A DNA stretch of 64,000 bases from Escherichia phage FL18. Of this stretch, positions 8,242 to 53,207 are shown piece after piece (position 1 is the first letter of the stretch; the number at the start of each line of letters is the position of its first letter). The DNA is taken from sequence record PP400780; one strand, 5' to 3'. The translations under genes and the position numbers were made by a program. The notes below the pieces were generated by a model, which did not search any database, was not told the DNA's origin, and saw only the letters and a list, made by a program, of their open reading frames with translations.

Positions 8242-8715
8242 ATGTTATTATCAGGCGCAAAATATAAAGAAGAAAAACAAAAATTTTATGATGCACAGAA
8301 TGGTAAGTGTCCTATTTGCCACCGTGAATTAGACCCTGATGTTCAAGGTAACCATCTTGACCACGACCACGAATTAAACGGGCCAAAAGCCGGTAGAGTT
8401 CGTGGATTACTCTGTAATCTGTGCAACGCAGCAGAAGGTCAAATGAAGCATAAGTTCAACCGTTCCGGTCTTAAAGGACGTGGTGTCGACTACCTCGAAT
8501 GGCTTGAAGCTCTTCTTGTTTATTTGAAACAAGATTATTCTGATAATAATATCCATCCTAATTTTGTTCCAGACAAAACTAAAGAGTTCTCAAGACTAGG
8601 TAAAGAGGAAATGATGGCTGAGATGCTTCAAAGAGGATTTGAATATAATGAATCTGACACCAAAACACAGTTAATAACTTCATTTAAGAAGCAGCTTAGA
8701 AAGAGTTTAAAATGA
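8242..8715 (+). CDS. 49: endonuclease VII (Holliday junction resolvase)
   Basis: 157 aa, near-identical to recalled T4 gp49 (MLL.GK.YKEEKQKFYDAQNGKC ... HLDHDHELNGPKAG). Confidence 0.9.
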   Translation: MLLSGAKYKEEKQKFYDAQNGKCPICHRELDPDVQGNHLDHDHELNGPKAGRVRGLLCNLCNAAEGQMKHKFNRSGLKGRGVDYLEWLEALLVYLKQDYSDNNIHPNFVPDKTKEFSRLGKEEMMAEMLQRGFEYNESDTKTQLITSFKKQLRKSLK

Positions 8716-9380
8716 ATGTAGTATATAAACTATCATTTATTAGTAGAATTAATGCTAAAACCCCGCCATATTATTATATTGGAAGTAAAACCAATTGCAC
8801 TTTTGACGGAACGAATATTATTGATAAAAATGGTAAATTTTATTATTCGTCTTCGTCATCTTCCGAATTTCAAAAAGCTTTGTTGAAAGAAACACCGAAA
8901 GTTGAAATATTATATTTTCAATTAGTCGGAGATGAACAAATAACTAGCATTGAAGCTGAATTTCAAAAGAATATAGAAAAAGATATATGGAATAAAGAGT
9001 ATTTTAATTTAGCATATGCTAATGGTCAATTTACAACGTACGGTGTTTCTCCTTCTAAAGAAACTAGAGAAAAGCAATCAATAACCATGATTAAAAGAAA
9101 TCGTAATAAAGGTAAAAATCATGGATTTTATGGAAAGCATCATACTAATTTAGCCAGAAAGAAAATATCAGAAGCTTCTAAAAAATACTGGAAAGAAAAT
9201 CCACATCATGGATTTTCGCACACAAAGGAAGCTAAAATTAAAATTGGAATTTCATCTTCTATCAGGCATAAAGGAAGTGGAAATCCGATGTACGGCGTAA
9301 AACCTTGGAAAACTCCTAGCGTTGTTCCATGGAATTTAGGTAAAATGAAAGAAATGGTAAAACGAGTAAAACATGCATAG
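8712..9380 (+). CDS. Seg-like homing endonuclease (GIY-YIG-like N-terminus, NUMOD-like repeats)
   Basis: VYKLSF ... YYYIGSK motif; repeated K/R-rich helix motifs; GNPMYG; paralogous to ORF 18918..19451. Confidence 0.55.
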   Translation: MNVVYKLSFISRINAKTPPYYYIGSKTNCTFDGTNIIDKNGKFYYSSSSSSEFQKALLKETPKVEILYFQLVGDEQITSIEAEFQKNIEKDIWNKEYFNLAYANGQFTTYGVSPSKETREKQSITMIKRNRNKGKNHGFYGKHHTNLARKKISEASKKYWKENPHHGFSHTKEAKIKIGISSSIRHKGSGNPMYGVKPWKTPSVVPWNLGKMKEMVKRVKHA

Positions 9381-10203
9381 GTATTATATAATTTATAAAA
9401 TAACAAATATAATTAATTCAAAGGAATATATCGGTGCGCATAGCACCGATAACATAAATGATGGTTATATGGGATCAGGAACATTGATTCGTGCCGCTTT
9501 ATTAAAATATGGTAGAAAAAATTTTAATAAAGAAATTTTACATGTTTTTGATAATGAAAAACAAATGTATGATAAAGAAGCTGAACTCGTAACCGAAGAG
9601 TATTGTCTAAAAGAAAATACATATAATATTAAACCTGGTGGAAAAGGTGGAACTGCCTATGAACAGACACTTGAACATCGCCGCAAAAATAGTTTAGCAA
9701 ATAAAGGTAAAAAGAGAACAGAAGAAACTAAAATAGCTATTTCACGTGCTTTAAAGAAATATAAACGTACGCCAGAGCATCAAGCAAATTTAAATAAAGC
9801 CGTAAGCATAGCTATGAAGCGAAAAGATGTTAGAAGTAAATTAGCTGGAGAGCGGTCTGAGAAAGATAAATTACCTATATCAAACGGTGTTAAAAAATAT
9901 TACAATTCTTTGAGTGAAGAAGAACGCGAACTTCATCGCAAGCGAATTATTGAAGGTAAAAAGAATTCTCCCATGTCATTGGAATCTAGACAAAAGCTTT
10001 CAAAAGCTTTAAAAGGACTTCAAGTTGGTTCAAAAAATCCAATGTATGGAAAAATTTCTCCAACTAGCAAAACCGTTTCAGTTGACGGTATTAAATATGA
10101 TTCAATTAAAAAGTGCTCAAATGCCATAAAAGTTTCTAGACATCTTATACTAAAACGCTGTAATTCTACTGATGAAGCTTGGAAAAATTGGATATTATTA
10201 TGA
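9373..10203 (+). CDS. GIY-YIG homing endonuclease (Seg-like)
   Basis: YYIIYKITNIINSKEYIGAHST (GIY ... YIG), downstream N/E residues, NUMOD3-like repeats (TEETKIAISRALK; SLESRQKLSKALKG; NPMYGK). Confidence 0.75.
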   Translation: MHRYYIIYKITNIINSKEYIGAHSTDNINDGYMGSGTLIRAALLKYGRKNFNKEILHVFDNEKQMYDKEAELVTEEYCLKENTYNIKPGGKGGTAYEQTLEHRRKNSLANKGKKRTEETKIAISRALKKYKRTPEHQANLNKAVSIAMKRKDVRSKLAGERSEKDKLPISNGVKKYYNSLSEEERELHRKRIIEGKKNSPMSLESRQKLSKALKGLQVGSKNPMYGKISPTSKTVSVDGIKYDSIKKCSNAIKVSRHLILKRCNSTDEAWKNWILL

Positions 10204-22556: not shown

Positions 22557-25268
22557 ATGAAAGAATTTTACTTAACGGTTGAACAGATTGGTGATTCAAT
22601 TTTTGAACGTTACATCGATTCTAATGGCCGTGAACGTACTCGTGAAGTAGAATATAAACCATCACTGTTTGCTCATTGTCCAGAAAGTCAGGCTACGAAA
22701 TATTTCGATATCTACGGTAAGCCGTGTACTCGTAAGTTGTTCGCTAATATGCGTGATGCCTCCCAATGGATTAAACGCATGGAAGATATCGGACTTGAAG
22801 CACTTGGCATGGACGATTTCAAATTGGCGTATTTGTCTGACACTTATAACTATGAAATCAAATACGACCATACAAAAATTCGTGTGGCTAACTTCGACAT
22901 CGAAGTAACATCTCCGGATGGGTTCCCTGAGCCATCACAAGCAAAACATCCGATTGATGCTATCACCCATTATGACTCAATTGACGACAGGTTCTACGTA
23001 TTTGATCTATTGAATTCTCCATATGGTAATGTAGAAGAATGGTCTATTGAAATCGCTGCTAAGCTTCAAGAACAAGGCGGTGATGAAGTTCCATCTGAAA
23101 TTATCGATAAAATCATTTATATGCCGTTCGATAACGAAAAAGAATTGTTGATGGAATATCTCAACTTCTGGCAACAGAAAACTCCTGTCATTTTGACTGG
23201 ATGGAACGTTGAGTCATTCGATATTCCATATGTGTATAACCGAATCAAGAATATTTTTGGCGAATCTACTGCGAAACGTTTATCACCGCATCGTAAAACT
23301 CGTGTTAAAGTTATCGAAAACATGTATGGTTCTCGTGAAATCATTACATTGTTCGGTATCTCTGTTCTTGATTACATTGACCTTTACAAAAAATTCTCTT
23401 TTACCAATCAACCGTCGTATTCTCTGGATTACATTTCAGAATTTGAATTGAACGTTGGTAAACTGAAATATGATGGCCCTATTTCTAAGCTTCGTGAAAG
23501 CAATCACCAACGATATATAAGCTATAACATCATCGACGTGTATCGTGTATTGCAAATTGATGCTAAGCGTCAGTTCATCAACTTGAGTTTGGACATGGGT
23601 TATTATGCTAAGATACAGATTCAATCTGTGTTTAGCCCAATTAAAACATGGGATGCTATTATTTTTAATAGCCTTAAAGAGCAGAACAAGGTGATTCCAC
23701 AAGGTCGTTCTCACCCGGTTCAACCTTATCCCGGCGCTTTTGTTAAGGAACCTATTCCAAATCGATACAAATATGTAATGAGTTTCGACCTTACATCTCT
23801 GTATCCAAGTATTATTCGCCAAGTGAATATTAGCCCGGAAACAATAGCAGGAACGTTTAAAGTAGCTCCATTGCATGATTATATTAACGCAATCGCTGAA
23901 CGTCCTTCAGATGTGTACAGTTGCTCTCCTAACGGCATGATGTATTATAAAGACCGTGATGGTGTAGTTCCAACTGAAATCACTAAGGTCTTTAATCAAC
24001 GTAAAGAACATAAAGGTTACATGCTTGCAGCTCAACGTAATGGTGAAATAATTAAAGAGGCATTGCATAATCCTAATCTTTCTGTTGACGAACCATTAGA
24101 TGTTGATTATCGTTTCGACTTCAGCGATGAGATTAAAGAAAAGATTAAAAAGTTGTCTGCTAAATCTCTTAATGAAATGTTGTTTAGAGCTCAACGTACT
24201 GAAGTTGCAGGTATGACTGCACAAATTAACCGTAAATTGCTTATCAACTCGCTTTATGGTGCACTTGGAAACGTTTGGTTCCGTTATTACGATTTGCGTA
24301 ATGCAACTGCAATCACAACATTCGGGCAAATGGCTTTACAGTGGATTGAACGTAAAGTTAATGAATATCTGAATGAAGTTTGTGGTACAGAAGGTGAAGC
24401 TTTCGTTCTATATGGTGATACAGACTCCATTTATGTATCTGCAGATAAAATTATTGATAAGGTTGGTGAATCTAAATTCCGTGATACCAACCATTGGGTA
24501 GACTTCTTAGATAAGTTTGCACGTGAACGTATGGAACCTGCTATTGATAGAGGTTTCCGTGAAATGTGCGAATACATGAACAATAAACAACACTTAATGT
24601 TCATGGACCGAGAAGCTATCGCTGGGCCTCCGCTTGGTTCTAAAGGTATTGGCGGATTTTGGACTGGTAAGAAACGTTATGCATTAAACGTGTGGGATAT
24701 GGAAGGTACTCGTTACGCTGAGCCTAAACTCAAAATCATGGGTCTAGAAACTCAGAAATCTTCGACCCCTAAAGCAGTACAGAAAGCTCTTAAAGAATGT
24801 ATTCGTCGTATGCTTCAAGAAGGTGAAGAATCATTACAAGAATATTTTAAAGAGTTTGAAAAAGAATTCCGTCAATTGAATTATATTAGCATCGCGTCGG
24901 TATCTTCTGCGAATAACATTGCTAAATATGACGTAGGTGGATTCCCTGGTCCTAAATGCCCGTTCCATATTCGTGGAATTCTGACATATAACCGAGCTAT
25001 CAAAGGTAATATCGATGCACCACAAGTTGTAGAAGGTGAAAAAGTATATGTTCTGCCTTTACGTGAAGGAAACCCATTCGGTGATAAATGTATCGCATGG
25101 CCTTCTGGTACTGAAATCACAGATTTAATTAAAGACGATGTACTTCATTGGATGGACTACACTGTTCTCCTTGAGAAGACATTTATTAAACCACTTGAAG
25201 GATTCACATCAGCAGCGAAACTCGATTATGAGAAGAAAGCATCTCTGTTCGATATGTTCGATTTTTGA
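22557..25268 (+). CDS. 43: DNA polymerase gp43 (family B, RB69-type)
   Basis: 903 aa; exonuclease motif FDIEV, polymerase motifs DLTSLYPSII and YGDTDS; N-terminus matches recalled RB69 gp43. Confidence 0.97.
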   Translation: MKEFYLTVEQIGDSIFERYIDSNGRERTREVEYKPSLFAHCPESQATKYFDIYGKPCTRKLFANMRDASQWIKRMEDIGLEALGMDDFKLAYLSDTYNYEIKYDHTKIRVANFDIEVTSPDGFPEPSQAKHPIDAITHYDSIDDRFYVFDLLNSPYGNVEEWSIEIAAKLQEQGGDEVPSEIIDKIIYMPFDNEKELLMEYLNFWQQKTPVILTGWNVESFDIPYVYNRIKNIFGESTAKRLSPHRKTRVKVIENMYGSREIITLFGISVLDYIDLYKKFSFTNQPSYSLDYISEFELNVGKLKYDGPISKLRESNHQRYISYNIIDVYRVLQIDAKRQFINLSLDMGYYAKIQIQSVFSPIKTWDAIIFNSLKEQNKVIPQGRSHPVQPYPGAFVKEPIPNRYKYVMSFDLTSLYPSIIRQVNISPETIAGTFKVAPLHDYINAIAERPSDVYSCSPNGMMYYKDRDGVVPTEITKVFNQRKEHKGYMLAAQRNGEIIKEALHNPNLSVDEPLDVDYRFDFSDEIKEKIKKLSAKSLNEMLFRAQRTEVAGMTAQINRKLLINSLYGALGNVWFRYYDLRNATAITTFGQMALQWIERKVNEYLNEVCGTEGEAFVLYGDTDSIYVSADKIIDKVGESKFRDTNHWVDFLDKFARERMEPAIDRGFREMCEYMNNKQHLMFMDREAIAGPPLGSKGIGGFWTGKKRYALNVWDMEGTRYAEPKLKIMGLETQKSSTPKAVQKALKECIRRMLQEGEESLQEYFKEFEKEFRQLNYISIASVSSANNIAKYDVGGFPGPKCPFHIRGILTYNRAIKGNIDAPQVVEGEKVYVLPLREGNPFGDKCIAWPSGTEITDLIKDDVLHWMDYTVLLEKTFIKPLEGFTSAAKLDYEKKASLFDMFDF

Positions 25269-25308: not shown

Positions 25309-25944
25309 ATGAAAACTACTCCTATTACTATCGCTATTGACGCAATCATAAAACAAGCTTCTTCTTTGGCCGCTATGGCCAAAGTAATTAGTCAAAACCC
25401 TGCTCGTTATAATGCTATTCTAGAAACTCTTCGACGCCCTGGACTTAGTAATTATGAAAGCCGGGTAATTATTACAGGTGTTGGTAAGAATGCTAATATC
25501 GCAACTAAAGCTTCCGAGACATTTGCTTCACTAGGTATTCCTAGCATGTATTTGAACACTGGGCATTATTCTCACGGTGATGCAGGATTCATTGCGCCTA
25601 ATGATGTGTTGATTCATATTAGTCGTTCTGGTAAGACTGAAGAAATGATAGGTGTTGCTAAACATCTTCGTATGATTCGTCCTCAGGTTAAACAGATTCT
25701 GTTACATTGTAACCCAGACATTCCACAAGAATACGAAGCTCTTTTTGATTATACGTTCTGTACTGGCATCGCGGTAGAGGTTGATGAGAATTCTCTGGCT
25801 CCGACTATGTCCACTACATTGTTGTTAGCGCTTATCGATACGTTTGCTATCAACCTTTCGTCTGAACGTGGATTTACCTCTAATGATTTCCTTAAGTTCC
25901 ATCCAGGCGGTGCACTAGGTGCCATGTTACGAGGCGAACAATGA
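25309..25944 (+). CDS. SIS-domain sugar-phosphate isomerase (arabinose-5-phosphate isomerase KdsD/GutQ-like, no CBS domains)
   Basis: ITGVGKNANIATK ... HGDAGFIAPNDVLIHISRSGKTEE ... APTMSTTLLLALID ... FHPGGALG align with recalled KdsD SIS-domain motifs. Confidence 0.7.
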   Translation: MKTTPITIAIDAIIKQASSLAAMAKVISQNPARYNAILETLRRPGLSNYESRVIITGVGKNANIATKASETFASLGIPSMYLNTGHYSHGDAGFIAPNDVLIHISRSGKTEEMIGVAKHLRMIRPQVKQILLHCNPDIPQEYEALFDYTFCTGIAVEVDENSLAPTMSTTLLLALIDTFAINLSSERGFTSNDFLKFHPGGALGAMLRGEQ

Positions 25945-26084
25945 AAGCAATAACAATAGGACTTTTACTATTGATGCTTGTCATGACTATCTACTGGAGC
26001 TTAACGGCTCCGGTAATGATTCCAACACTTGTAATTGGATGGATTATGATTGGACTACAAGCAAAGTATGAATGCTTTAACTAG
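25941..26084 (+). CDS. small membrane protein (47 aa)
   Basis: manual translation MKAITIGLLLLMLVMTIYWSLTAPVMIPTLVIGWIMIGLQAKYECFN; ATGA overlap with SIS gene stop; below ORF-track cutoff. Confidence 0.4.
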   Translation: MKAITIGLLLLMLVMTIYWSLTAPVMIPTLVIGWIMIGLQAKYECFN

Positions 26085-26097
26085 AATAGTGTACAAT
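26070..26097 (+). promoter_or_regulatory. putative MotA-dependent middle promoter (MotA box AATGCTTTA, -10 TACAAT 12 nt downstream)
   Basis: aatgctttaactagaatagtgtacaat upstream of nucleotidyltransferase-kinase gene. Confidence 0.4.
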
Positions 26098-26125
26098 ACT
26101 CCTACTTACCAATGAGGACTTTAAC

Positions 26126-27811
26126 ATGAAAAAAGCTGTTATTCTTGGTGCTGGACTGGCAACTCGTTTGTATCCAATAACGCATCATATTCCTAAGGTG
26201 CTTGTTAACTATAAACAAGATACTATTCTGAGCAATTTGTATACAATTTATTCTGACCTTGGCGCAGATGAAATTATTGTAGTAGTTCATTCAAAATTTG
26301 CTGAAACTGTTCGAGCTTATTGTGAACAAGAAGGGTTCAATGTGACTATTCGTACAGTTGATGAAGCGTATGGTTCTGCTTATGCTCTTGCTAAATTACA
26401 CAAAGATTTAGACGGCCATAATGTAATTGTTAACTGGTGTGATATTATTCCTGATTTTGGTTCATGGTCTTGGAATGTTAACGCAATCTATGTTAAGGGT
26501 GACGAATGTCGATATAATTTCGACGGTGAAAATATCACTAACGTAGGTTCAACAGGTGGTAATGTTGTAGGAATTTATCAGTTCAAAGACTGGGAATTCT
26601 ATATGGGTTCTACTGATGAGGAAATTCATGAATACTGCAAAGGACGTGATTTCGTAGAATTCCTTTACGGCAGCGCATTCAATAAATCAGAGCTTATGAA
26701 TCTAATTGATTTAGGTGATATGCCTAAACTTGAAAAAGCTCATGAAGTTCGTGAACTTAATCGTAGTTTTAATGCAGTTGAAATTGGTGAAGAAACTGTA
26801 ACTAAATTCGCATTAACCGAACAGGGTCGAGCTCTTCAGAAAGATGAGATTTCGTGGTATCTTAAAGTGAAATCAGATTCAGTTCCTCAGTTAGTTTCTG
26901 TTAATGAAAATAACTTTGAAATGGAACGCATTAAAGGTAAGCCTGCATTTGAATATATTAAATCCAAATCAAGTCTTGCTCGTCCACAAATTGTTGATGC
27001 AATTTTAGATGCACTGAAATTCAGCACAGACACTTATTTTGTAAGTCCTGAAACTGTTCGTCGTGATTTCACTAAAGAATTCTATACGAAAGTTATTGAT
27101 CGTTGTGAAAGCATTCAACCATTGATTGATTCATTTGGTAAAATCACACATGTGAACTACACTAAGATTGGACGTCTGAAGCCAATGCTGAAACAAGCTT
27201 TAGAACACCTCATTCGTTATCATAACCGTTCTCAGGGACAGTACTCTGTTATTCACGGTGACCCGAACTTCAGTAATACTATGATTACTGATAATGGCGA
27301 AGTCAAGTTTATCGACCCTCGTGGATATTTTGGTGAAACCAAGATTTACGGGCCAAAATTGTACGATGAAGCTAAAGTGCTTTATGCTGTTTCAGGTTAT
27401 GATGAATTCAATGCTAATCCGACCTGGGGGCAGTTTACTATTGATGAAACAACTTGTAATGTGACTATTAACATCAATCCATTAGTTTACAAATATAGAA
27501 AGATGAGTTCGTTTAACGAGTATCATCATTTGGCAGTGGCAATTATCTGGATTGCATTAGGCGGTTATTTCAAGAATAATCCACTTAAAGCGGTAGCCGC
27601 ATATTATAAAGGTATGGAACTTCTGACTAAGCAATTACGTAACATGGGCCGTGTACTTCAGGACGGCTCTATTAGTTATGACGTAGCAGAACCTGTAACG
27701 GCTACTCTGATTACAAAAAATCCTGGTAAATGGGTACTAACTGATAAAGAAACTGGTGTTTCCTATCGTCCAATCGGTGGCGATATCACTCATCAATGGG
27801 AACGAATCTAA
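26126..27811 (+). CDS. bifunctional sugar-1-phosphate nucleotidyltransferase / kinase-like fusion protein
   Basis: N-terminus MKKAVILGAGLATRLYPITHHIPKVLV (sugar nucleotidyltransferase G-rich loop); C-terminal region has protein-kinase-like HGDPNFSNTMI (catalytic loop) and FIDPRGYFG (DFG-like) as in APH/choline-kinase-type small-molecule kinases. Confidence 0.65.
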   Translation: MKKAVILGAGLATRLYPITHHIPKVLVNYKQDTILSNLYTIYSDLGADEIIVVVHSKFAETVRAYCEQEGFNVTIRTVDEAYGSAYALAKLHKDLDGHNVIVNWCDIIPDFGSWSWNVNAIYVKGDECRYNFDGENITNVGSTGGNVVGIYQFKDWEFYMGSTDEEIHEYCKGRDFVEFLYGSAFNKSELMNLIDLGDMPKLEKAHEVRELNRSFNAVEIGEETVTKFALTEQGRALQKDEISWYLKVKSDSVPQLVSVNENNFEMERIKGKPAFEYIKSKSSLARPQIVDAILDALKFSTDTYFVSPETVRRDFTKEFYTKVIDRCESIQPLIDSFGKITHVNYTKIGRLKPMLKQALEHLIRYHNRSQGQYSVIHGDPNFSNTMITDNGEVKFIDPRGYFGETKIYGPKLYDEAKVLYAVSGYDEFNANPTWGQFTIDETTCNVTININPLVYKYRKMSSFNEYHHLAVAIIWIALGGYFKNNPLKAVAAYYKGMELLTKQLRNMGRVLQDGSISYDVAEPVTATLITKNPGKWVLTDKETGVSYRPIGGDITHQWERI

Positions 27812-28197
27812 TGCACCGTGTAGAAAACATGCTTAATCTTTGTTTTGATGTCGATGATTGTATAACAGAGTGGAATAACAATCGTGATTACGTGAACTTC
27901 AAACCTGACGTCGAAATGGTGTCTGCCATTAATGCCCTGTATGATGCAGGGCATACCATAACGCTTTACACTGCTCGCGGTATGAAGTCAGTAGGTCCTG
28001 GACGTATAGCAATTGACATTCTCCCAAGTCTGATTCAGAACTTGGAAAACATTGGTTTGAAGTACCATAATTTGCTAACACATAAACCAGTATATGATTG
28101 GATTATCGACGACAAAGCTATGCGTCCTGACGAATTCAAAGCTCTTATGAATAAAGGCGAATTCGAAACATTTAAATCGTATAAACCGAATCTATAA
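27811..28197 (+). CDS. HAD-superfamily phosphatase-like protein (start uncertain: 27796, 27811 or 27829)
   Basis: N-terminal LCFDVDDCIT (motif I-like DxD), TITLYTARG (motif II-like), WIIDDK (motif IV-like). Confidence 0.5.
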   Translation: MHRVENMLNLCFDVDDCITEWNNNRDYVNFKPDVEMVSAINALYDAGHTITLYTARGMKSVGPGRIAIDILPSLIQNLENIGLKYHNLLTHKPVYDWIIDDKAMRPDEFKALMNKGEFETFKSYKPNL

Positions 28198-28253
28198 TAA
28201 TTTAAGTAAGACCTGCAAAAACCATCGCGTCAATTAACGTGAGATGCAAAAAA

Positions 28254-29414
28254 ATGAATACTTTTAAAATTGGAACGAATTTTGATTTAGCTCTTCTTGA
28301 TAAAATCGTAGAGCTCAATAAAACTTATCCTAATAGCTTGATAAACGAAGTATACGGCTCTACAAGAGAAATGGCTTTTGTAGCAGCCAGACCTGATTTT
28401 AGGCTTCCTGACGTTGACAAAAAGATGTTAGAAGATTACGTTAAACGTTGTAACGAATTAGGTATTTGCTTTAACTATACACTCAACACGATAAATCCTG
28501 GTTCAAAAAGAGAACTAGTTGAGTGGAAGAAGAAAGCTATTCAGGATTATGTTCAGTATCTTTGGTCAATAGGTGTATGGCGTATTACTATCGCTAACCC
28601 TGTTGTTATGGAAATTGTTCGTGAAGTCAATAAAGACATTGAGATTGAAGTTTCAACAATTCTACATGTCGATGCTGTAACTCAAATCAAATACTTGCAT
28701 GACCAGTATAATATCAAAAAGGTCTGCTGTGGAATTCATAAGAACCGTTCAGTTTCTTTCCTGAAGCGTGCAGCAGAGTTTTGCAATAAGAACAATATAA
28801 TATTTGAAGTTCTTGTAAATGAGTTCTGTTCTAATGCTGGTAAAGGGTATACAACACATTGTAGCTATCGTGACTCTTGCTATATTTTCCATAGTACTGA
28901 TGTTACAGCTGATGATGCTAAATCCTTAAACGGATATCCTATGCAGCACTGTATTAAAGCTCGTGATACAGACCCATTTAACTGGTTGAGAACTCGTTTT
29001 GTTCGTCCTCAAGATTTGAAACTTTATAATGATATTGGTATCACTCAATTCAAAGTTTCAGGACGTACAGGTAGCACAGACTACATTTTGAAAGTTCTTG
29101 AAGCATACGCTTCTGAAAAGTTTGAAGGTAATTTGTTAGAACTGTGGAAGCCTTTAGAGACTATTTTCACTCTTGAAAACGAAACTGAGTTTTCACATAC
29201 AGTAAATATTGAAACCTCTTTGTTAGATGGCTTTTTAGAAAAAAGGTGGTTCAGACATCCAGATTTCGATTGTGCTAATGAAATCTGCGGGACGACGTGT
29301 ACATATTGTGAAAGATATTATAAACGTCAATTATCTAAAAACGGGTTAGCAGAAAACTCTATATCTATTATTGATATAACTAACTCTGATGACGCTTTGA
29401 GGTACCCGGAATGA
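28254..29414 (+). CDS. Cys-rich protein of unknown function (candidate metallo/Fe-S enzyme)
   Basis: 386 aa from ATG at 28254; Cys clusters CCGIH, FCSNAGKGYTTHCSYRDSC and C-terminal CANEICGTTCTYC (contains CX3CX2C). Confidence 0.5.
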   Translation: MNTFKIGTNFDLALLDKIVELNKTYPNSLINEVYGSTREMAFVAARPDFRLPDVDKKMLEDYVKRCNELGICFNYTLNTINPGSKRELVEWKKKAIQDYVQYLWSIGVWRITIANPVVMEIVREVNKDIEIEVSTILHVDAVTQIKYLHDQYNIKKVCCGIHKNRSVSFLKRAAEFCNKNNIIFEVLVNEFCSNAGKGYTTHCSYRDSCYIFHSTDVTADDAKSLNGYPMQHCIKARDTDPFNWLRTRFVRPQDLKLYNDIGITQFKVSGRTGSTDYILKVLEAYASEKFEGNLLELWKPLETIFTLENETEFSHTVNIETSLLDGFLEKRWFRHPDFDCANEICGTTCTYCERYYKRQLSKNGLAENSISIIDITNSDDALRYPE

Positions 29415-29650
29415 TTTCTAGAAAAACTTTTAATCACCAACTTAATGAAGAGATTTTGACTACGAAACTGAACACTAACGAACAAATTCTTAAAAAGGCC
29501 CTTATGGGCCTGTTTGAAACCAAAGCGGCTAAAGTGATTAAAGGACCTGTTCAATTAGAATATTACGCTGATACATTTCTTCATAGTGTTCTTGGAAGTA
29601 TCGATGCTGAAGCTTTACGTTATATCAACATTGCCAAGAAATTCAAATAA
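29411..29650 (+). CDS. hypothetical protein (79 aa)
   Basis: ATGA-overlapping ORF at end of sugar cassette. Confidence 0.45.
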   Translation: MISRKTFNHQLNEEILTTKLNTNEQILKKALMGLFETKAAKVIKGPVQLEYYADTFLHSVLGSIDAEALRYINIAKKFK

Positions 29651-29692: not shown

Positions 29693-30409
29693 ATGGGGAA
29701 ACATAACACAATGAAATATATCAAAGCCGCAGATTTTCAAACCGCATTTAAAGCAGTCAATCGTGAAATTTTAGAAAACCCGGAATTCGTAACTGATTCT
29801 CGTATTGGACGTTGTAATGAAATTGGGTCTATGACAGTAGTTGTTGACACTCCATCATCATTCAAAATGACTGACCCACGTATTAACCGCATCTCTTATG
29901 AATATGCCGAAGACTTCTGGAAGTTTATGATTTCTGGTGGTACCAACGCAGAAGAAGCGTTTAAGGCATATCCTAATGTCGCTAAATTTATTTCTAAACC
30001 AAAATCAGATGTTTTGCCGGCGAACTTCAATACTTTCTATGGTCCTCGCATTGCGGCCCAATTACCAGCTCTTCTAAAAGAACTTAAAGAGAAGCCTAAC
30101 TCTCGAAGAGTTGTGTTCCAAATTCTAGAAAGTTCTGATCAGGCTTTGCTTGATTCGGATGAAACGCTTGAATATCCATGTACTGACTCAGTGACTTATT
30201 ATATTCGTGATGGTAAGCTTTATACCCACTGTCATATGCGTTCTCAGAACTGTGCTGTTGTTATGCAGTTGGATTTTTATCTCCAAGGAAAATTACTTCA
30301 TTATATCGCTAACGAATGCGGTGTAGAAGTTGGTGATTATACTCATACCATGGTAAGTGCCCATGTGTTTGAACGTGATTTTGATTATGTTAAAGGATTC
30401 CTTGACTAA
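29693..30409 (+). CDS. 42: deoxynucleotide hydroxymethylase, thymidylate-synthase family (T4 gp42 dCMP hydroxymethylase-like)
   Basis: YPCTDSVTYYIRDGKLYTHCHMRSQNCAVVMQLDFY matches the TS/dCH catalytic core (PC nucleophile, MRS motif); synteny downstream of 43. Confidence 0.75.
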   Translation: MGKHNTMKYIKAADFQTAFKAVNREILENPEFVTDSRIGRCNEIGSMTVVVDTPSSFKMTDPRINRISYEYAEDFWKFMISGGTNAEEAFKAYPNVAKFISKPKSDVLPANFNTFYGPRIAAQLPALLKELKEKPNSRRVVFQILESSDQALLDSDETLEYPCTDSVTYYIRDGKLYTHCHMRSQNCAVVMQLDFYLQGKLLHYIANECGVEVGDYTHTMVSAHVFERDFDYVKGFLD

Positions 30410-31308
30410 TGGCTATTTTCCGCGTACCAATCTTGAGTATGCGGTCTTATGAAACTGGACAGTATGCTATCCTTAAGGATGGCAACTTCCAACTTCATTT
30501 GCACCGTGCTAATCCGGGTGATGTGATTACATATCCACGTAATGCATCTGATATTAAAGAATGCGAACGTCTTTTCCCAGAATTTAAGTTTGTTCCATTA
30601 TGGTATAAAGATAACGCTTATAACACTCGTAAATATTTCTGGTCTGAAAATGAATTTGTGGTTGATTCATTAATTGCTTATTATGATTGCGATTTTCTAA
30701 TCACAGATATAACTGGATATGACGGCGCTTTTGATGTAGAATTCAATTTCAATATCACTGCAGACCCTAATAAACCACGTTTTTATATTGACGAATTCTT
30801 AAAAACCGACATGTTGTCGGTTAATCGTTCAATCCAAACAACTGTGTTGAATGAACGTCAAAAAGAAGTGCTGGTTAACGCAGGTGCAGATGGTAATAAG
30901 ATTATCGTAACGCAGAAAGTTATACGTCCTTCCATCATGCAGCGTCTTGTAGGTGATTTGGCTCCTATTTATCTAGATGGTATTTTTCATCCATTTCGAA
31001 TTAGTGACCCGTGCTATCGTTTTGAACAAGTGGTTGAATGTGCAATTCAATTAGGTCAACCGCTTTATATAACCGATCCAAATAATAGCTTTGACAGAAA
31101 TAAGTATCCTGAAGAAGCGTTGATTCGAATTTTTAAACCAACTAAAACTGAGTACTATCAAATTCTTAAAGGACGTCCGAAGATTCAATATTTCGAAAAT
31201 CCTGAAGAGGTATTTCATCCAGGTCTTGGTGAGTTCATCTACTTTAATGCTTTAATTTCTTCACCGTATAATATACCTAAATATGAAGATGTCGTAATCG
31301 AGGAATAA
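30409..31308 (+). CDS. hypothetical protein occupying the T4 beta-glucosyltransferase locus (candidate DNA sugar transferase)
   Basis: 299 aa ORF between gene 42 and uvsX; no similarity to recalled T4 beta-GT. Confidence 0.45.
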   Translation: MAIFRVPILSMRSYETGQYAILKDGNFQLHLHRANPGDVITYPRNASDIKECERLFPEFKFVPLWYKDNAYNTRKYFWSENEFVVDSLIAYYDCDFLITDITGYDGAFDVEFNFNITADPNKPRFYIDEFLKTDMLSVNRSIQTTVLNERQKEVLVNAGADGNKIIVTQKVIRPSIMQRLVGDLAPIYLDGIFHPFRISDPCYRFEQVVECAIQLGQPLYITDPNNSFDRNKYPEEALIRIFKPTKTEYYQILKGRPKIQYFENPEEVFHPGLGEFIYFNALISSPYNIPKYEDVVIEE

Positions 31309-31309
31309 A

Positions 31310-31858
31310 ATGGCTAAAATTATTTTAGTAGATGGCCCGGATAATGCTGGTAAAACAACTTTCATTAATGACATAATGGAAATTAGTGAAAGATATGTAA
31401 AAATTGATTTCCCTAAACGAACAGTTGATGGACGTTTCGATGTTAAGTCTCGAAATGAAGTTGGCTGTTTTGAAACGATGTTGAATTATTTAGACCCTAC
31501 TAAGATTTATCTGTTAGACCGTGGATATATTAGTAACTGGGTTTACGGACGTATTCGACAAGATGCGGACTCGGTTCTTGACGTTTATGAACAGGATTAT
31601 ATTCGTCTTTGCCAAAACCATGATGTGTTCACAATTATTTTAACACGTAACGAAATGACTGAAAGTTTTGAAGACGACCTTATTACTTTGTCTTCATTCG
31701 GTTTTAATACAGTCATTTCACATTTTGAAGAGTTTGCAATTCATAACAAAATCCAAACGTATCAATTACTTAATCATGATGGTGCTAACAAAGTTATAGG
31801 ATTTAATGCAAGCGAACGTAATGGTTTGATTACAGAAATCATCAAATGGGCTCGTTAA
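31310..31858 (+). CDS. P-loop nucleoside/nucleotide kinase-like protein
   Basis: Walker A GPDNAGKTT near N-terminus; LLDRGYISNWVYG resembles the DR(Y) motif of TMK/dNK-type kinases. Confidence 0.5.
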   Translation: MAKIILVDGPDNAGKTTFINDIMEISERYVKIDFPKRTVDGRFDVKSRNEVGCFETMLNYLDPTKIYLLDRGYISNWVYGRIRQDADSVLDVYEQDYIRLCQNHDVFTIILTRNEMTESFEDDLITLSSFGFNTVISHFEEFAIHNKIQTYQLLNHDGANKVIGFNASERNGLITEIIKWAR

Positions 31859-39844: not shown

Positions 39845-39933
39845 AATATCTCCTTAGTTACCTTATTATTTATTACGCTTTATAAAATTAATGTTAGAAT
39901 TAACTCTCTTATACTGAATTGAAAGGAAAAATA

Positions 39934-40455
39934 ATGGCACACTTTAACGAATGTTCACAACTTATTTCTGGTGTTGATAAAGCAGAAGAAGCTTATTTTA
40001 ATGCTCTGATTCACGAAGATAAAGACCCACTGCAGGTAATGCTTGATATGCAGAAATCTTTACAGGTTCTTCTGGCAAATGACAAGCCTGAACATAACAA
40101 ACATCCTGATGAATTGGCTACTGCTGGTGATGTTGTTGATTGGCTGCGTAATCAGAAAGATTATATTGATGATGAATTTCGTGAACTGCTGACTTCACTT
40201 GGCGGTATGAGCAATGGTGAAAAAGCTGCCAGCAGTGTATGGAAGCCGTGGAAGGCACAACACGCTGAATATCGAAATCGTCGTATCGATGAACTGTCTC
40301 CTGAAGACCAGCTTGAAATTAAATTTGAAATGATTGATATTCTGCATTTCGTTCTAAATATGTTCCAAGGTCTAGGACTTTCTGCTGAAGAAATCTTCAA
40401 ACTGTATTATCTGAAAAACCAACACAACTTTGAACGTCAGGATAATGGTTACTAA
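39934..40455 (+). CDS. 56: dCTP pyrophosphatase gp56 (MazG-like dCTPase/dUTPase)
   Basis: MAHFNECSQLISGVDKAEE ... matches recalled T4 gp56; ATG at 39934 preferred over upstream TTG. Confidence 0.8.
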   Translation: MAHFNECSQLISGVDKAEEAYFNALIHEDKDPLQVMLDMQKSLQVLLANDKPEHNKHPDELATAGDVVDWLRNQKDYIDDEFRELLTSLGGMSNGEKAASSVWKPWKAQHAEYRNRRIDELSPEDQLEIKFEMIDILHFVLNMFQGLGLSAEEIFKLYYLKNQHNFERQDNGY

Positions 40456-52106: not shown

Positions 52107-53207
52107 ATGAAAGTTATGTTTATCCCATCTCGCGCAGTCCCATTTAACCCAGAACGTGTACAAGGTGGTCTTGAAGCAGTACATTTAAATGTGTTGAAAT
52201 ATCTTGTGTCCATCGGTGCTGATATTGATTATATCGGCTTTGATAATGACACGTTTGGTGACTGGAAGGTTAATCATCATCCTGTTGGTCATCTGACTAA
52301 ATTCAGTCTAGGTATGAGTTATACTATGGCTCGTAAGATTGTTGAACTAGCCGGCATTAATGAGTACGATTTCGTTGTTACAATGGAACCGACCAAACTA
52401 ACCGTTCAGGCAATTAAAGACGCAGGTCTCTCTAAAGTTCATAAGAATTTTATGGCAACACCATTTGAACCAGTATCTCGTGGCATTGTTCAAATTTGGG
52501 ACCAGACTATTCAAATTCATAAGAACGGTGGTAAGAGTTATGCTCCTACTAAAGCCTTCCGTGAATTTGAACGCAAATATTGTTATATGACTTCAGGTCT
52601 GACTGACAAAATTGATTATGATTATTGGCGAGCAAATCCGTTGTTTGAAGCCGAAGATTATCCGGTTATTTGTTTGAATGATAAACCTGAAGTTCTTCCG
52701 GCGACGGATCTGATTATTAGTGCACAACGTTATGACACTAAAATGCGTCGTACTGATGTTGCTCTTGAAGCGATTAAAGCACTAGGCGAAAATGGTGCAG
52801 GATACTGTCCAAGCAAATGGGCGCCACCGGCTAAATATCCTGTTATTATTGATGCTCCACACAGTGAAATTATGGAACGTCTTAAAACAGCTAAAGCACT
52901 TATTAATACGTGTCCTGACACAGGTACGGTAGAGAATAGTTCTATTGAAGCCATCTCTAAAGGTGTCCCTGTAATCCAGTTAGTTTTTAAGGATTATCCT
53001 CATGCGACATTTGAATACGACCCAGATACTGTGCGTGTAGAAATTGATTCCTCTACTCCTAAGAAAGAAGTAGTTGCGCTTTACACAAAAGCTGTATTAG
53101 AATTCACTGACACATACGAAGCTCGAGTTAAACGTGCTGAAGCTGTATGGAAGAAGTATAACCGAGATGCAGTTGTTGCGATGTGGGATAAAATCTTCAC
53201 AGCGTAA
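52107..53207 (+). CDS. putative glycosyltransferase (GT-B fold, GT4-like)
   Basis: N-terminus MKVMFIPSRAVPFNPERVQGGLEAVHLNVLKYL and C-terminal ENSSIEAISKGVPVIQ resemble GT4 N-terminal and EX7E-region motifs; judged by eye. Confidence 0.45.
   Translation: MKVMFIPSRAVPFNPERVQGGLEAVHLNVLKYLVSIGADIDYIGFDNDTFGDWKVNHHPVGHLTKFSLGMSYTMARKIVELAGINEYDFVVTMEPTKLTVQAIKDAGLSKVHKNFMATPFEPVSRGIVQIWDQTIQIHKNGGKSYAPTKAFREFERKYCYMTSGLTDKIDYDYWRANPLFEAEDYPVICLNDKPEVLPATDLIISAQRYDTKMRRTDVALEAIKALGENGAGYCPSKWAPPAKYPVIIDAPHSEIMERLKTAKALINTCPDTGTVENSSIEAISKGVPVIQLVFKDYPHATFEYDPDTVRVEIDSSTPKKEVVALYTKAVLEFTDTYEARVKRAEAVWKKYNRDAVVAMWDKIFTA

Follow-up and report, generated by a model that had tools for sequence, protein, structure and literature searches.

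Positions 25309-29650 of a 64,000-nucleotide stretch of Escherichia phage FL18 (record PP400780; the whole stretch is called the window here) very probably make up the sugar-donor half, sugar route included, of an RB69-type arabinosyl-5-hydroxycytosine cluster. The idea of such a sugar-donor cassette is already in the literature and the system is known. The fourth enzyme gene of the interval encodes a U32-family Fe-S protein, which could be a prephenate-dependent, O2-independent hydroxylase making 5-hydroxypyrimidine deoxynucleotides for DNA glycosylation, a proposal to which we give even chances of being right. An earlier examination of the letters without database searches, hereafter the sequence-only reading, had placed four co-oriented enzymes in this interval and assigned them to the arabinosylation of 5-hydroxymethylcytosine (hmC).

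All genes of the interval lie on the + strand. The map of open reading frames (ORFs) showed that six of them fill it; the four enzyme genes were present at the coordinates that the sequence-only reading had given, and its inventory had missed two small ORFs (25941-26084 and 29411-29650). The minus strand held no ORF longer than 75 amino acids (aa), and the base composition of the interval was even with that of its flanks. Of the 195 phage records that matched the interval, 152 covered 80% or more of its length at nucleotide identities of 95-99%; the best match was Escherichia phage JM17 (99.4% nucleotide identity). BLASTP comparisons found window orthologues of RB69 gp45, gp46:47, gp48, gp50, gp51, gp52:53 and gp55 at 98-99.5% identity and of gp49 at 92%, in the same order and between gene 43 and uvsX. 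This gene order is that of RB69 gp45-gp55 with gp3 and of the HY126 Afh cluster, of which the window is a member. By sequence comparison, the polymerase and the cluster proteins are those of an RB69-type Mosigvirus, as had been suspected from the polymerase. In addition, the ratio of nonsynonymous to synonymous substitution rates (dN/dS) of the U32 gene was about 0.04-0.07 against its orthologues in Pectobacterium phage PM2 and Yersinia phage TG1, indicating strong purifying selection. Since 152 records share the interval, its proteins are 92-99.5% identical to those of RB69 and the U32 dN/dS is low, its genes are real and not chance ORFs.

The sugar route is assigned to three genes:

25309-25944, + strand: single-domain SIS protein, RB69 gp55 orthologue, 211 aa (Pfam SIS, E 4.8e-10; PHROG 5670; 98.1% identical to RB69 gp55)
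26126-27811, + strand: AfhE-type bifunctional enzyme, RB69 gp52:53, 561 aa (NTP_transferase and kinase families; RB69 identity 99.4-99.5%)
27811-28197, + strand: AfhF-type HAD phosphatase, RB69 gp51, 128 aa (127/128 identical to PDB 9iqw)

The SIS protein is predicted to be an arabinose-5-phosphate isomerase that converts ribulose-5-phosphate into D-arabinose-5-phosphate (Ara5P), the role proposed for gp55-type proteins in Lee 2026 (PMC13326640). It matched the NCBIfam models KpsF/GutQ (TIGR00393; 111 bits, E 5e-32) and KdsD (106 bits) and the PDB entries 3etn (E 6.8e-25) and 2xhz (E 1.4e-18). It scored far under the equivalog cut-offs of KdsD (106 bits vs 505) and GutQ (80 bits vs 481), and the match spanned only residues 47-202 of the 328 of KdsD, with no tandem CBS pair. 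KdsD (SIS domain 2xhz) and GutQ have both a C-terminal CBS pair and a full-length equivalog score, whereas the window protein has neither and resembles the single-domain arabinose-5-phosphate isomerase of Bacteroides fragilis (3etn), in which the SIS domain also stands without a CBS pair. In the AfhE-type protein, an N-terminal sugar-1-phosphate nucleotidyltransferase and a C-terminal APH/choline-kinase-like domain are fused in one intact ORF, which is the AfhE architecture. Pfam placed NTP_transferase at residues 3-99 (E 8.5e-10) and gave weak kinase-family matches at 308-409; NCBIfam sugar-1-phosphate nucleotidyltransferases and PDB 1jyk were also matched, and the motifs GAGLATRLYP and HGDPNFSN are present. 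The gp52/53 and gp46/47 genes, which are split in the RB69 reference, are intact single ORFs in the window (561 and 299 aa), in agreement with the published corrections that treat these RB69 frameshifts as sequencing errors (PMC6024577, PMC13326640). The HAD protein carries the motifs FDVDDC, with the DxD nucleophile, and IIDDK, and it matched the capsule-biosynthesis phosphatase model TIGR01689 (E 1.6e-13) and PDB 1xpj (E 1.4e-10). The enzyme classes named from the letters (SIS isomerase, nucleotidyltransferase-kinase fusion and HAD phosphatase) were thus borne out by Pfam, NCBIfam, PDB and RB69 identity.

In the proposed route, the SIS isomerase would divert ribulose-5-phosphate to Ara5P, the C-terminal kinase of AfhE would phosphorylate C1 of Ara5P to give arabinofuranose-1,5-bisphosphate, the AfhF phosphatase would then take off the 5-phosphate to leave arabinose-1-phosphate (Ara1P), and the N-terminal nucleotidyltransferase of AfhE would form UDP-arabinofuranose. 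As far as the work of He et al. 2026 is relayed in Lee 2026 (PMC13326640), the HY126 AfhE kinase converts Ara5P into arabinose-1,5-bisphosphate, HY126 AfhF is a Mg-dependent phosphatase that turns arabinofuranose-1,5-bisphosphate into Ara1P, and the N-terminal domain of HY126 AfhE makes UDP-arabinofuranose from Ara1P and UTP. Thomas 2018 had already named ORF055c and ORF53_52c as candidates for UDP-arabinose synthesis (PMC6024577), and UDP-arabinofuranose is the donor that phage glycosyltransferases use on DNA (PMC13326640). The claim that the cassette supplies an NDP-arabinose donor for DNA glycosylation is therefore supported by published work on near-identical proteins (PMC13326640). The HAD and ThyA-like proteins of the window are 98-99% identical to the solved structures 9iqw and 9iqc; these entries, together with 9ir2 and 9iqu, presumably come from the work of He et al., the PDB copy giving no citation. 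Two findings reported for Thanatos speak against these assignments: its AfhE homologue TH1_060 had no in vitro activity in the assays tried, yet is essential to the phage, and its GT1 homologue TH1_063 is reported to have UDP-xylose pyrophosphorylase activity (PMC12838424). Both conflict with the roles given in RB69 and HY126. Separately, a locus of Dhakavirus IME08 (L012) and two Klebsiella phage loci (L007 and L024) keep AfhE and AfhF and have no SIS gene; these phages presumably rely on host KdsD or GutQ for Ara5P.

The acceptor base and its glycosylation are assigned to genes downstream of the interval and farther away. These genes, and the polymerase gene that flanks the interval upstream, are:

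22557-25268, + strand: gp43 DNA polymerase, upstream flank of the interval
29693-30409, + strand: ThyA-superfamily flavin- and O2-dependent 5-hydroxy-dCMP (5-hydroxydeoxycytidine monophosphate) synthase, RB69 gp48, just outside the interval and part of the system
30409-31308, + strand: GT-B glycosyltransferase GT1, RB69 gp46:47, 299 aa, a single ORF 98-99% identical to RB69 gp46 and gp47
31310-31858, + strand: thymidylate-kinase-like nucleotide kinase, RB69 gp45 (PHROG 761; 98.4% identical to RB69 gp45)
39919-40455, + strand: dCTPase of the gp56 type (Pfam dUTPase_2, E 1.9e-6), as the sequence-only reading had listed
52107-53207, + strand: candidate second arabinosyltransferase (GT-B), RB69 gp3/ORF003c, by its length and its position after the gp39 topoisomerase gene as in RB69p003

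The ThyA-like protein matched Pfam Thymidylat_synt (E 2.3e-15), was 98% identical to PDB 9iqc/9ir2/9iqu and 99.2% identical to the assayed RB69 gp48. By inspection of its sequence, MRSQNCAVVMQLD, positions 169 and 177 (E. coli numbering) are N and D, respectively. These residues correspond to the D169N and N177D signature by which Lee 2026 defined 5-hydroxy-dCMP synthases (PMC13326640), and the Asp169 of the folate-dependent gp42 hydroxymethylase is replaced by Asn. RB69 gp48 binds flavin and makes 5-hydroxy-dCMP with oxygen from 18O2, and RB69 DNA carries mono- and di-arabinosylated 5-hydroxycytosine in which the sugar is ether-linked directly to C5, as determined by liquid chromatography-mass spectrometry, nuclear magnetic resonance (NMR) and gas chromatography-mass spectrometry (PMC13326640). 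Virion DNA of the Mosigvirus NP likewise carries arabinosylated 5-hydroxycytosine (PMC13390438). In the window, the ThyA-like synthase would make the acceptor, the GT-B transferase and the nucleotide kinase follow it, and the second transferase would be the product of 52107-53207. That GT1 is the first arabinosyltransferase, acting on 5-hydroxycytosine, is a hypothesis of Lee 2026 (PMC13326640); the transferase role of RB69 gp3 was proposed both there and in Thomas 2018 (PMC6024577). The sequence-only reading had noted the lack of T4-type glucosyltransferases, which holds in that the transferases are unrelated to the T4 alpha and beta enzymes; it had overlooked the two GT-B arabinosyltransferase candidates.

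The cassette could be read in two other ways. According to the sequence-only reading, it feeds arabinosyl-hmC through a gp42-type hydroxymethylase, with the phosphatase acting first, free arabinose as an intermediate and the Cys-rich protein (the U32 protein) as a fourth pathway enzyme. Arabinosyl-hmC was indeed reported for RB69 by Thomas 2018 (PMC6024577), the phosphatase-first route still stands in Table 1 of Lee 2026, and the ThyA homologue shares the N177D and L143E features with T4 gp42 (PMC13326640). However, NMR, mass spectrometry and 18O2 labelling gave 5-hydroxycytosine with ether-linked arabinose (PMC13326640), and a 2026 AEM paper calls the older hmC assignment erroneous (PMC13390438), so that neither the base nor the gp42-type enzyme stands. 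The order of steps was also reversed, since, in the part of He et al. relayed in Lee 2026 (PMC13326640), the HY126 kinase acts first, on Ara5P, and AfhF acts on the bisphosphate. The U32 protein is not part of the sugar route; in other phages it accompanies nucleotide and shikimate genes, sometimes without any sugar-nucleotide gene. We consider this version very improbable; its remark that no biochemistry was known had been overtaken by characterisation published in 2025-2026. The other possibility, that the cassette alters sugars of the host envelope (Kdo, lipopolysaccharide or capsule) and not DNA, would explain the KpsF/GutQ and EcbF-BcbF family matches, the place of Ara5P as a Kdo precursor, the resemblance of the HAD protein to capsule-biosynthesis phosphatases and the deposition of PDB 9iqw as a "capsule biosynthesis protein". 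Against it, the arabinose of RB69 and its relatives is found in virion DNA (PMC13326640, PMC13390438), in the part of the HY126 work relayed in Lee 2026 (PMC13326640), AfhE and AfhF yield UDP-arabinofuranose, which phage glycosyltransferases use on DNA, and in every case the cassette genes lie in a cluster that includes the hydroxylase, transferase and kinase genes. An envelope function thus seems scarcely credible.

The fourth enzyme gene, whose product had been described from the letters as Cys-rich, is:

28254-29414, + strand: U32-family Fe-S protein, RB69 gp50, 386 aa (Pfam Peptidase_U32, PF01136, E 7.5e-11, above the gathering score)

A search of PDB sequences with this protein gave no match at E<=1. 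The AlphaFold model, built from an alignment of 30 homologous sequences, reached a predicted local distance difference test score (pLDDT) of 90.5; its best fold match was PDB 5d88, and it has the TIM barrel of U32 proteins. Ten cysteines were invariant across the 30 homologues, including C340, C345, C349 and C352, which form a C-terminal CX4CX3CX2C cluster that is itself invariant. When the protein is aligned with UbiU, C203 and C209 fall on its C169 and C176; they also coincide with the motif cysteines of RlhA and TrhP, and the FKxxGR motif is kept. Mutation of UbiU C176 impairs Fe-S binding and abolishes function (PMC10990095), and the conserved cysteines of the phage protein are predicted 4Fe-4S ligands. 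The U32 domain, the TIM barrel, the two Fe-S cysteines and FKxxGR are therefore common to the window protein and to RlhA, TrhP and UbiU-UbiV. RlhA has extra C-terminal cysteines as well, but the CX4CX3CX2C cluster of the window protein differs from them. When aligned by hhalign with the E. coli U32 proteins, the window protein gave probabilities of 77% for RlhA, 6% for TrhP, 5% for UbiU and 0.4% for UbiV. At 386 aa, it lacks the C-terminal domains of RlhA (653 aa) and TrhP (453 aa). When 1.84 billion representatives were searched exhaustively with a profile, only 1662 clusters (defined at 50% identity) were returned, at least 456 of them at E<=1e-30. On these comparisons, the phage U32 proteins are a remote, distinct and large phage subfamily.

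The characterised U32 hydroxylation pathways are independent of O2 and need Fe-S clusters and prephenate, which in the case of UbiU-V has been demonstrated to donate the oxygen (PMC10990095, PMC5727448, PMC6599085). RlhA is needed for the formation of 5-hydroxycytidine in 23S rRNA (PMC5727448), that is, for hydroxylation at the same position of the cytosine ring. A genomic link to prephenate supply, a proxy for dependence on prephenate, was seen in relatives of the window phage. In 56 non-Mosigvirus Straboviridae records, a tblastn search found an AroQ chorismate mutase gene adjoining the U32 gene; arabinosyl-hydroxycytosine is reported in the DNA of two of these phages, Serratia LC53 and 92A1 (PMC13326640). 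All five chorismate mutases that were scanned (Enterobacter phage Entb_45, Pectobacterium phage PM2, Yersinia phage TG1, a Klebsiella phage and Shewanella phage Thanatos-2) scored above the Pfam CM_2 gathering threshold, and in Thanatos-2 the U32-chorismate mutase pair was relocated as a unit. Mosigviruses, the window included, have no chorismate mutase.

To this we added the gene context of U32 in 50 loci, 10 of them on metagenome contigs and 40 on IMG/VR contigs, which were searched with the window proteins as seeds and viewed within flanks of 8-10 kb. All 15 Straboviridae loci had the RB69 layout. In the 35 divergent loci, where U32 was 40-58% identical, a GT1 homologue was found in 23, usually ending at the U32 start, and a gp45-like kinase homologue in most. 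At least 11 of them had kinase-GT1-U32 without SIS or AfhE, nine of these with a preceding dCTPase gene (order dCTPase-kinase-GT1-U32). Nine loci had GT1-SIS-AfhE together with U32 and no ThyA-like gene. A shikimate-pathway gene (DAHP synthase, a DAHP synthase-chorismate mutase fusion or chorismate mutase) adjoined U32 in 8 of the 35; the DAHP synthase call is based on 237 bits to the DAHP synthase model vs 63 bits to that of Kdo8P synthase. A ThyA-like gene was seen in only one of these 35 flanks.

Several loci showed other arrangements. In Klebsiella phage Clarke_MM3, the ThyA-like gene comes directly after U32; chorismate mutase and orfX, the small gene described below, are both missing. 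Radical SAM/SPASM genes lie within a few kb of a U32 homologue in three unrelated contigs (L001 1314-2249, L002 14160-15185 and L020 7972-9000); their products could be maturases or electron-transfer partners of U32. One of these contigs (L002, 10001-17428) groups two U32 paralogues with genes for an NT5C 5'-nucleotidase, a PnuC-like transporter, a deoxynucleoside kinase, the radical SAM/SPASM protein and a nucleoside deoxyribosyltransferase. The contig, 86 kb long, has genes for dockerin/GH43 proteins as well, and no GT1 or kinase homologue was detected in it; the cluster may serve deoxynucleoside salvage or modification in an anaerobe. Another locus (L015, 6465-14179) contains a kinase, a GT1-like gene, U32, a TET-associated glycosyltransferase (TAGT, E 4e-8) and a dUTPase/DCD gene, with a UDP-galactopyranose mutase gene farther on; neither a ThyA-like nor a TET gene was visible. 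The locus may produce a galactofuranosylated hydroxypyrimidine similar to the one in Rhizobium phage RL38JI.

U32 occupies the position of the ThyA-like hydroxylase, next to the kinase gene and, in 23/35 loci, a GT1 gene, and it has prephenate-supply genes nearby, so that an alternative, O2-independent pyrimidine C5-hydroxylase is the simplest reading. The oxygen atom would come from prephenate. RB69-like phages would then have two routes to 5-hydroxycytosine, an aerobic one through the flavin-dependent ThyA-like gp48 and an anaerobic one through U32 as a backup; in many uncultured phages, U32 would be the sole route, and some of these phages would supply prephenate with a DAHP synthase and/or chorismate mutase that they encode themselves. 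E. coli, too, keeps an aerobic and an anaerobic route side by side, TrhO and TrhP for 5-hydroxyuridine and UbiI/H/F and UbiU/V for ubiquinone. The context of the window-type U32 points to deoxynucleotide or DNA substrates, whereas RlhA, TrhP and UbiU-V act on RNA or a quinone.

Several observations weigh against this proposal. RB69 gp48 alone suffices for 5-hydroxycytosine in aerobic E. coli (PMC13326640), and U32 is dispensable for arabinosyl-5-hydroxycytosine, since it is absent from Acinetobacter phages such as Lazarus and from the E. coli Dhakavirus IME08, in which the rest of the arabinosylation set is present. A profile hidden Markov model search of all ORFs found no chorismate mutase in the window. 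RlhA, the best-matching E. coli paralogue, is only modestly similar (hhalign E 2e-5 over 203 columns), and the protein matched no NCBIfam equivalog (UbiU, 18.5 bits vs a cut-off of 440). So far, no U32 protein has shown hydroxylase activity in vitro (PMC10990095). Moreover, ThyA-like genes may lie farther out than the 8-10 kb flanks of the divergent loci. We hold the proposal at even chances because no U32 enzyme has been reconstituted in vitro, the window lacks chorismate mutase, some relatives lack U32 and the ThyA-less contigs were viewed only within these flanks. Lee 2026 cites the RlhA and TrhP papers in its discussion, as unrelated hydroxylation routes (PMC13326640). We found no literature linking phage U32 proteins to prephenate hydroxylation among what was readable; He 2026 and Mahler 2025, which lay outside it, may cover the gene. 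A restriction of U32 to phages of facultative anaerobes was considered and fitted only in part, since the E. coli Dhakavirus IME08 also lacks U32 (two loci inspected). The anaerobic-growth marker nrdD was not found in window 1-21 kb, which is uninformative.

Other roles for U32 were weighed against the same gene contexts. The protein might tailor the pentose by acting on a sugar or sugar nucleotide, for instance as a reductase or an epimerase. In Table 1 of Lee 2026, gp50 is labelled a "sugar or heterocycle reductase", without discussion (PMC13326640), a label that also counts against hydroxylation; the gene lies directly behind the three sugar-route genes, Thanatos, whose U32 is 79% identical, is reported with a deoxypentose (PMC12838424), and the TIM-barrel fold is common to many sugar enzymes. 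Yet RB69 has the U32 gene and plain arabinose (PMC13326640), the kinase-GT1-U32 loci without SIS or AfhE leave no sugar genes to accompany, chorismate mutase and DAHP synthase neighbours have no rationale in sugar tailoring, and none of the characterised U32 members is a sugar enzyme (PMC10990095). We regard sugar tailoring as unlikely. A role in RNA, in which U32 would hydroxylate phage or host tRNA or rRNA like TrhP and RlhA and tune translation, unrelated to DNA modification, appears more doubtful still. The nucleic-acid U32 enzymes characterised so far do act on RNA (PMC10990095, PMC5727448) and the closest E. coli paralogue is RlhA, but the gene is embedded in a DNA-modification cluster, in ThyA-less phages it overlaps the GT1-type gene and comes after dNMP-kinase-like and dCTPase genes, and the missing RlhA/TrhP C-terminal domains do not favour an RNA substrate. 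A true peptidase was given negligible weight, since it fits neither the surroundings of the gene nor the Fe-S cysteines nor how the family is now viewed. Sugar tailoring, RNA hydroxylation and peptidase activity each fit the gene contexts less well than pyrimidine C5-hydroxylation does.

The two small ORFs of the interval overlap the genes that precede them:

25941-26084, + strand: hydrophobic 47-aa ORF, RB69 gp54 region, 4-bp overlap with the SIS gene (PHROG 3610, E 6.8e-27)
29411-29650, + strand: gp49 ("orfX"), 79 aa, 4-bp overlap with the U32 gene, 92% identical to RB69 gp49

The 47-aa ORF, of which the RB69 annotation has only a 36-aa version, has syntenic small counterparts in PM2 and TG1, and its product may be a membrane peptide. 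In PM2, TG1 and other phages, an extra small ORF separates U32 from chorismate mutase; gp49 was 41-51% identical to it and shares with these small ORFs the motif YYxDAFxHSxxGxIxAExxRHINxAKR. It was truncated to 47-58 aa in 11 of 32 Mosigvirus metagenome cluster variants and may therefore be dispensable. That gp49 is a decayed chorismate mutase was rejected: it had no CM_2 match at E<=10, BLASTP was negative, hhalign against phage chorismate mutases gave a probability of 0.2%, and PM2 and TG1 have both its homologue and a chorismate mutase. Between 24 and 33 kb of the window, an Rfam scan gave no match and a repeat search nothing meaningful; counts of promoter-like and terminator-like sites were not above those of shuffled sequence. 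In JM17 (PP400779.1, 45708-50750), the cassette contains an insertion of about 700 bp, annotated as a GIY-YIG homing endonuclease, that the window lacks. Elsewhere in the window, the adjacent ORFs 8712-9380 and 9373-10203 carry NUMOD3 and I-TevI-like DNA-binding motifs and are probably homing endonuclease genes.

The whole system follows the logic of hmC glucosylation in T4 and occupies the same position between genes 43 and uvsX: dCTP is depleted, dCMP is modified by a ThyA-superfamily enzyme, phosphorylated, incorporated and glycosylated, in T4 by the gp56 dCTPase, the gp42 dCMP hydroxymethylase, the gp1 kinase and the alpha- and beta-glucosyltransferases. It differs from T4 in that the hydroxyl is directly on C5, with no methylene bridge, and that the enzyme which makes it depends on flavin and O2, not on folate. 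A donor made by the phage provides arabinofuranose, where T4 takes glucose from the UDP-glucose of its host, and the transferases are unrelated in sequence to those of T4. With such a cassette, a phage builds a sugar donor that is absent from its host, hypermodifies every cytosine and escapes restriction and CRISPR, as is already established.

The U32 lead bears on two questions, namely how 5-hydroxycytosine could be synthesised without oxygen and what chemistry the U32 family performs. To our knowledge, the only 5-hydroxy-dCMP synthase demonstrated requires O2, and such phages infect gut and sediment bacteria, which are often anoxic. If the proposal is true, a U32/prephenate route would let phages modify their DNA in anoxic hosts. 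O2-independent hydroxylation, so far described for RNA and quinones, would then reach DNA precursors as well, and the U32 family would gain its first substrate in a DNA pathway. With dCMP, a small and soluble substrate would be at hand for these enzymes, whose chemistry no one has yet reconstituted in vitro. Kinase-GT1-U32 clusters without a ThyA-like gene also single out many uncultured phages in whose DNA glycosylated hydroxypyrimidines are likely.

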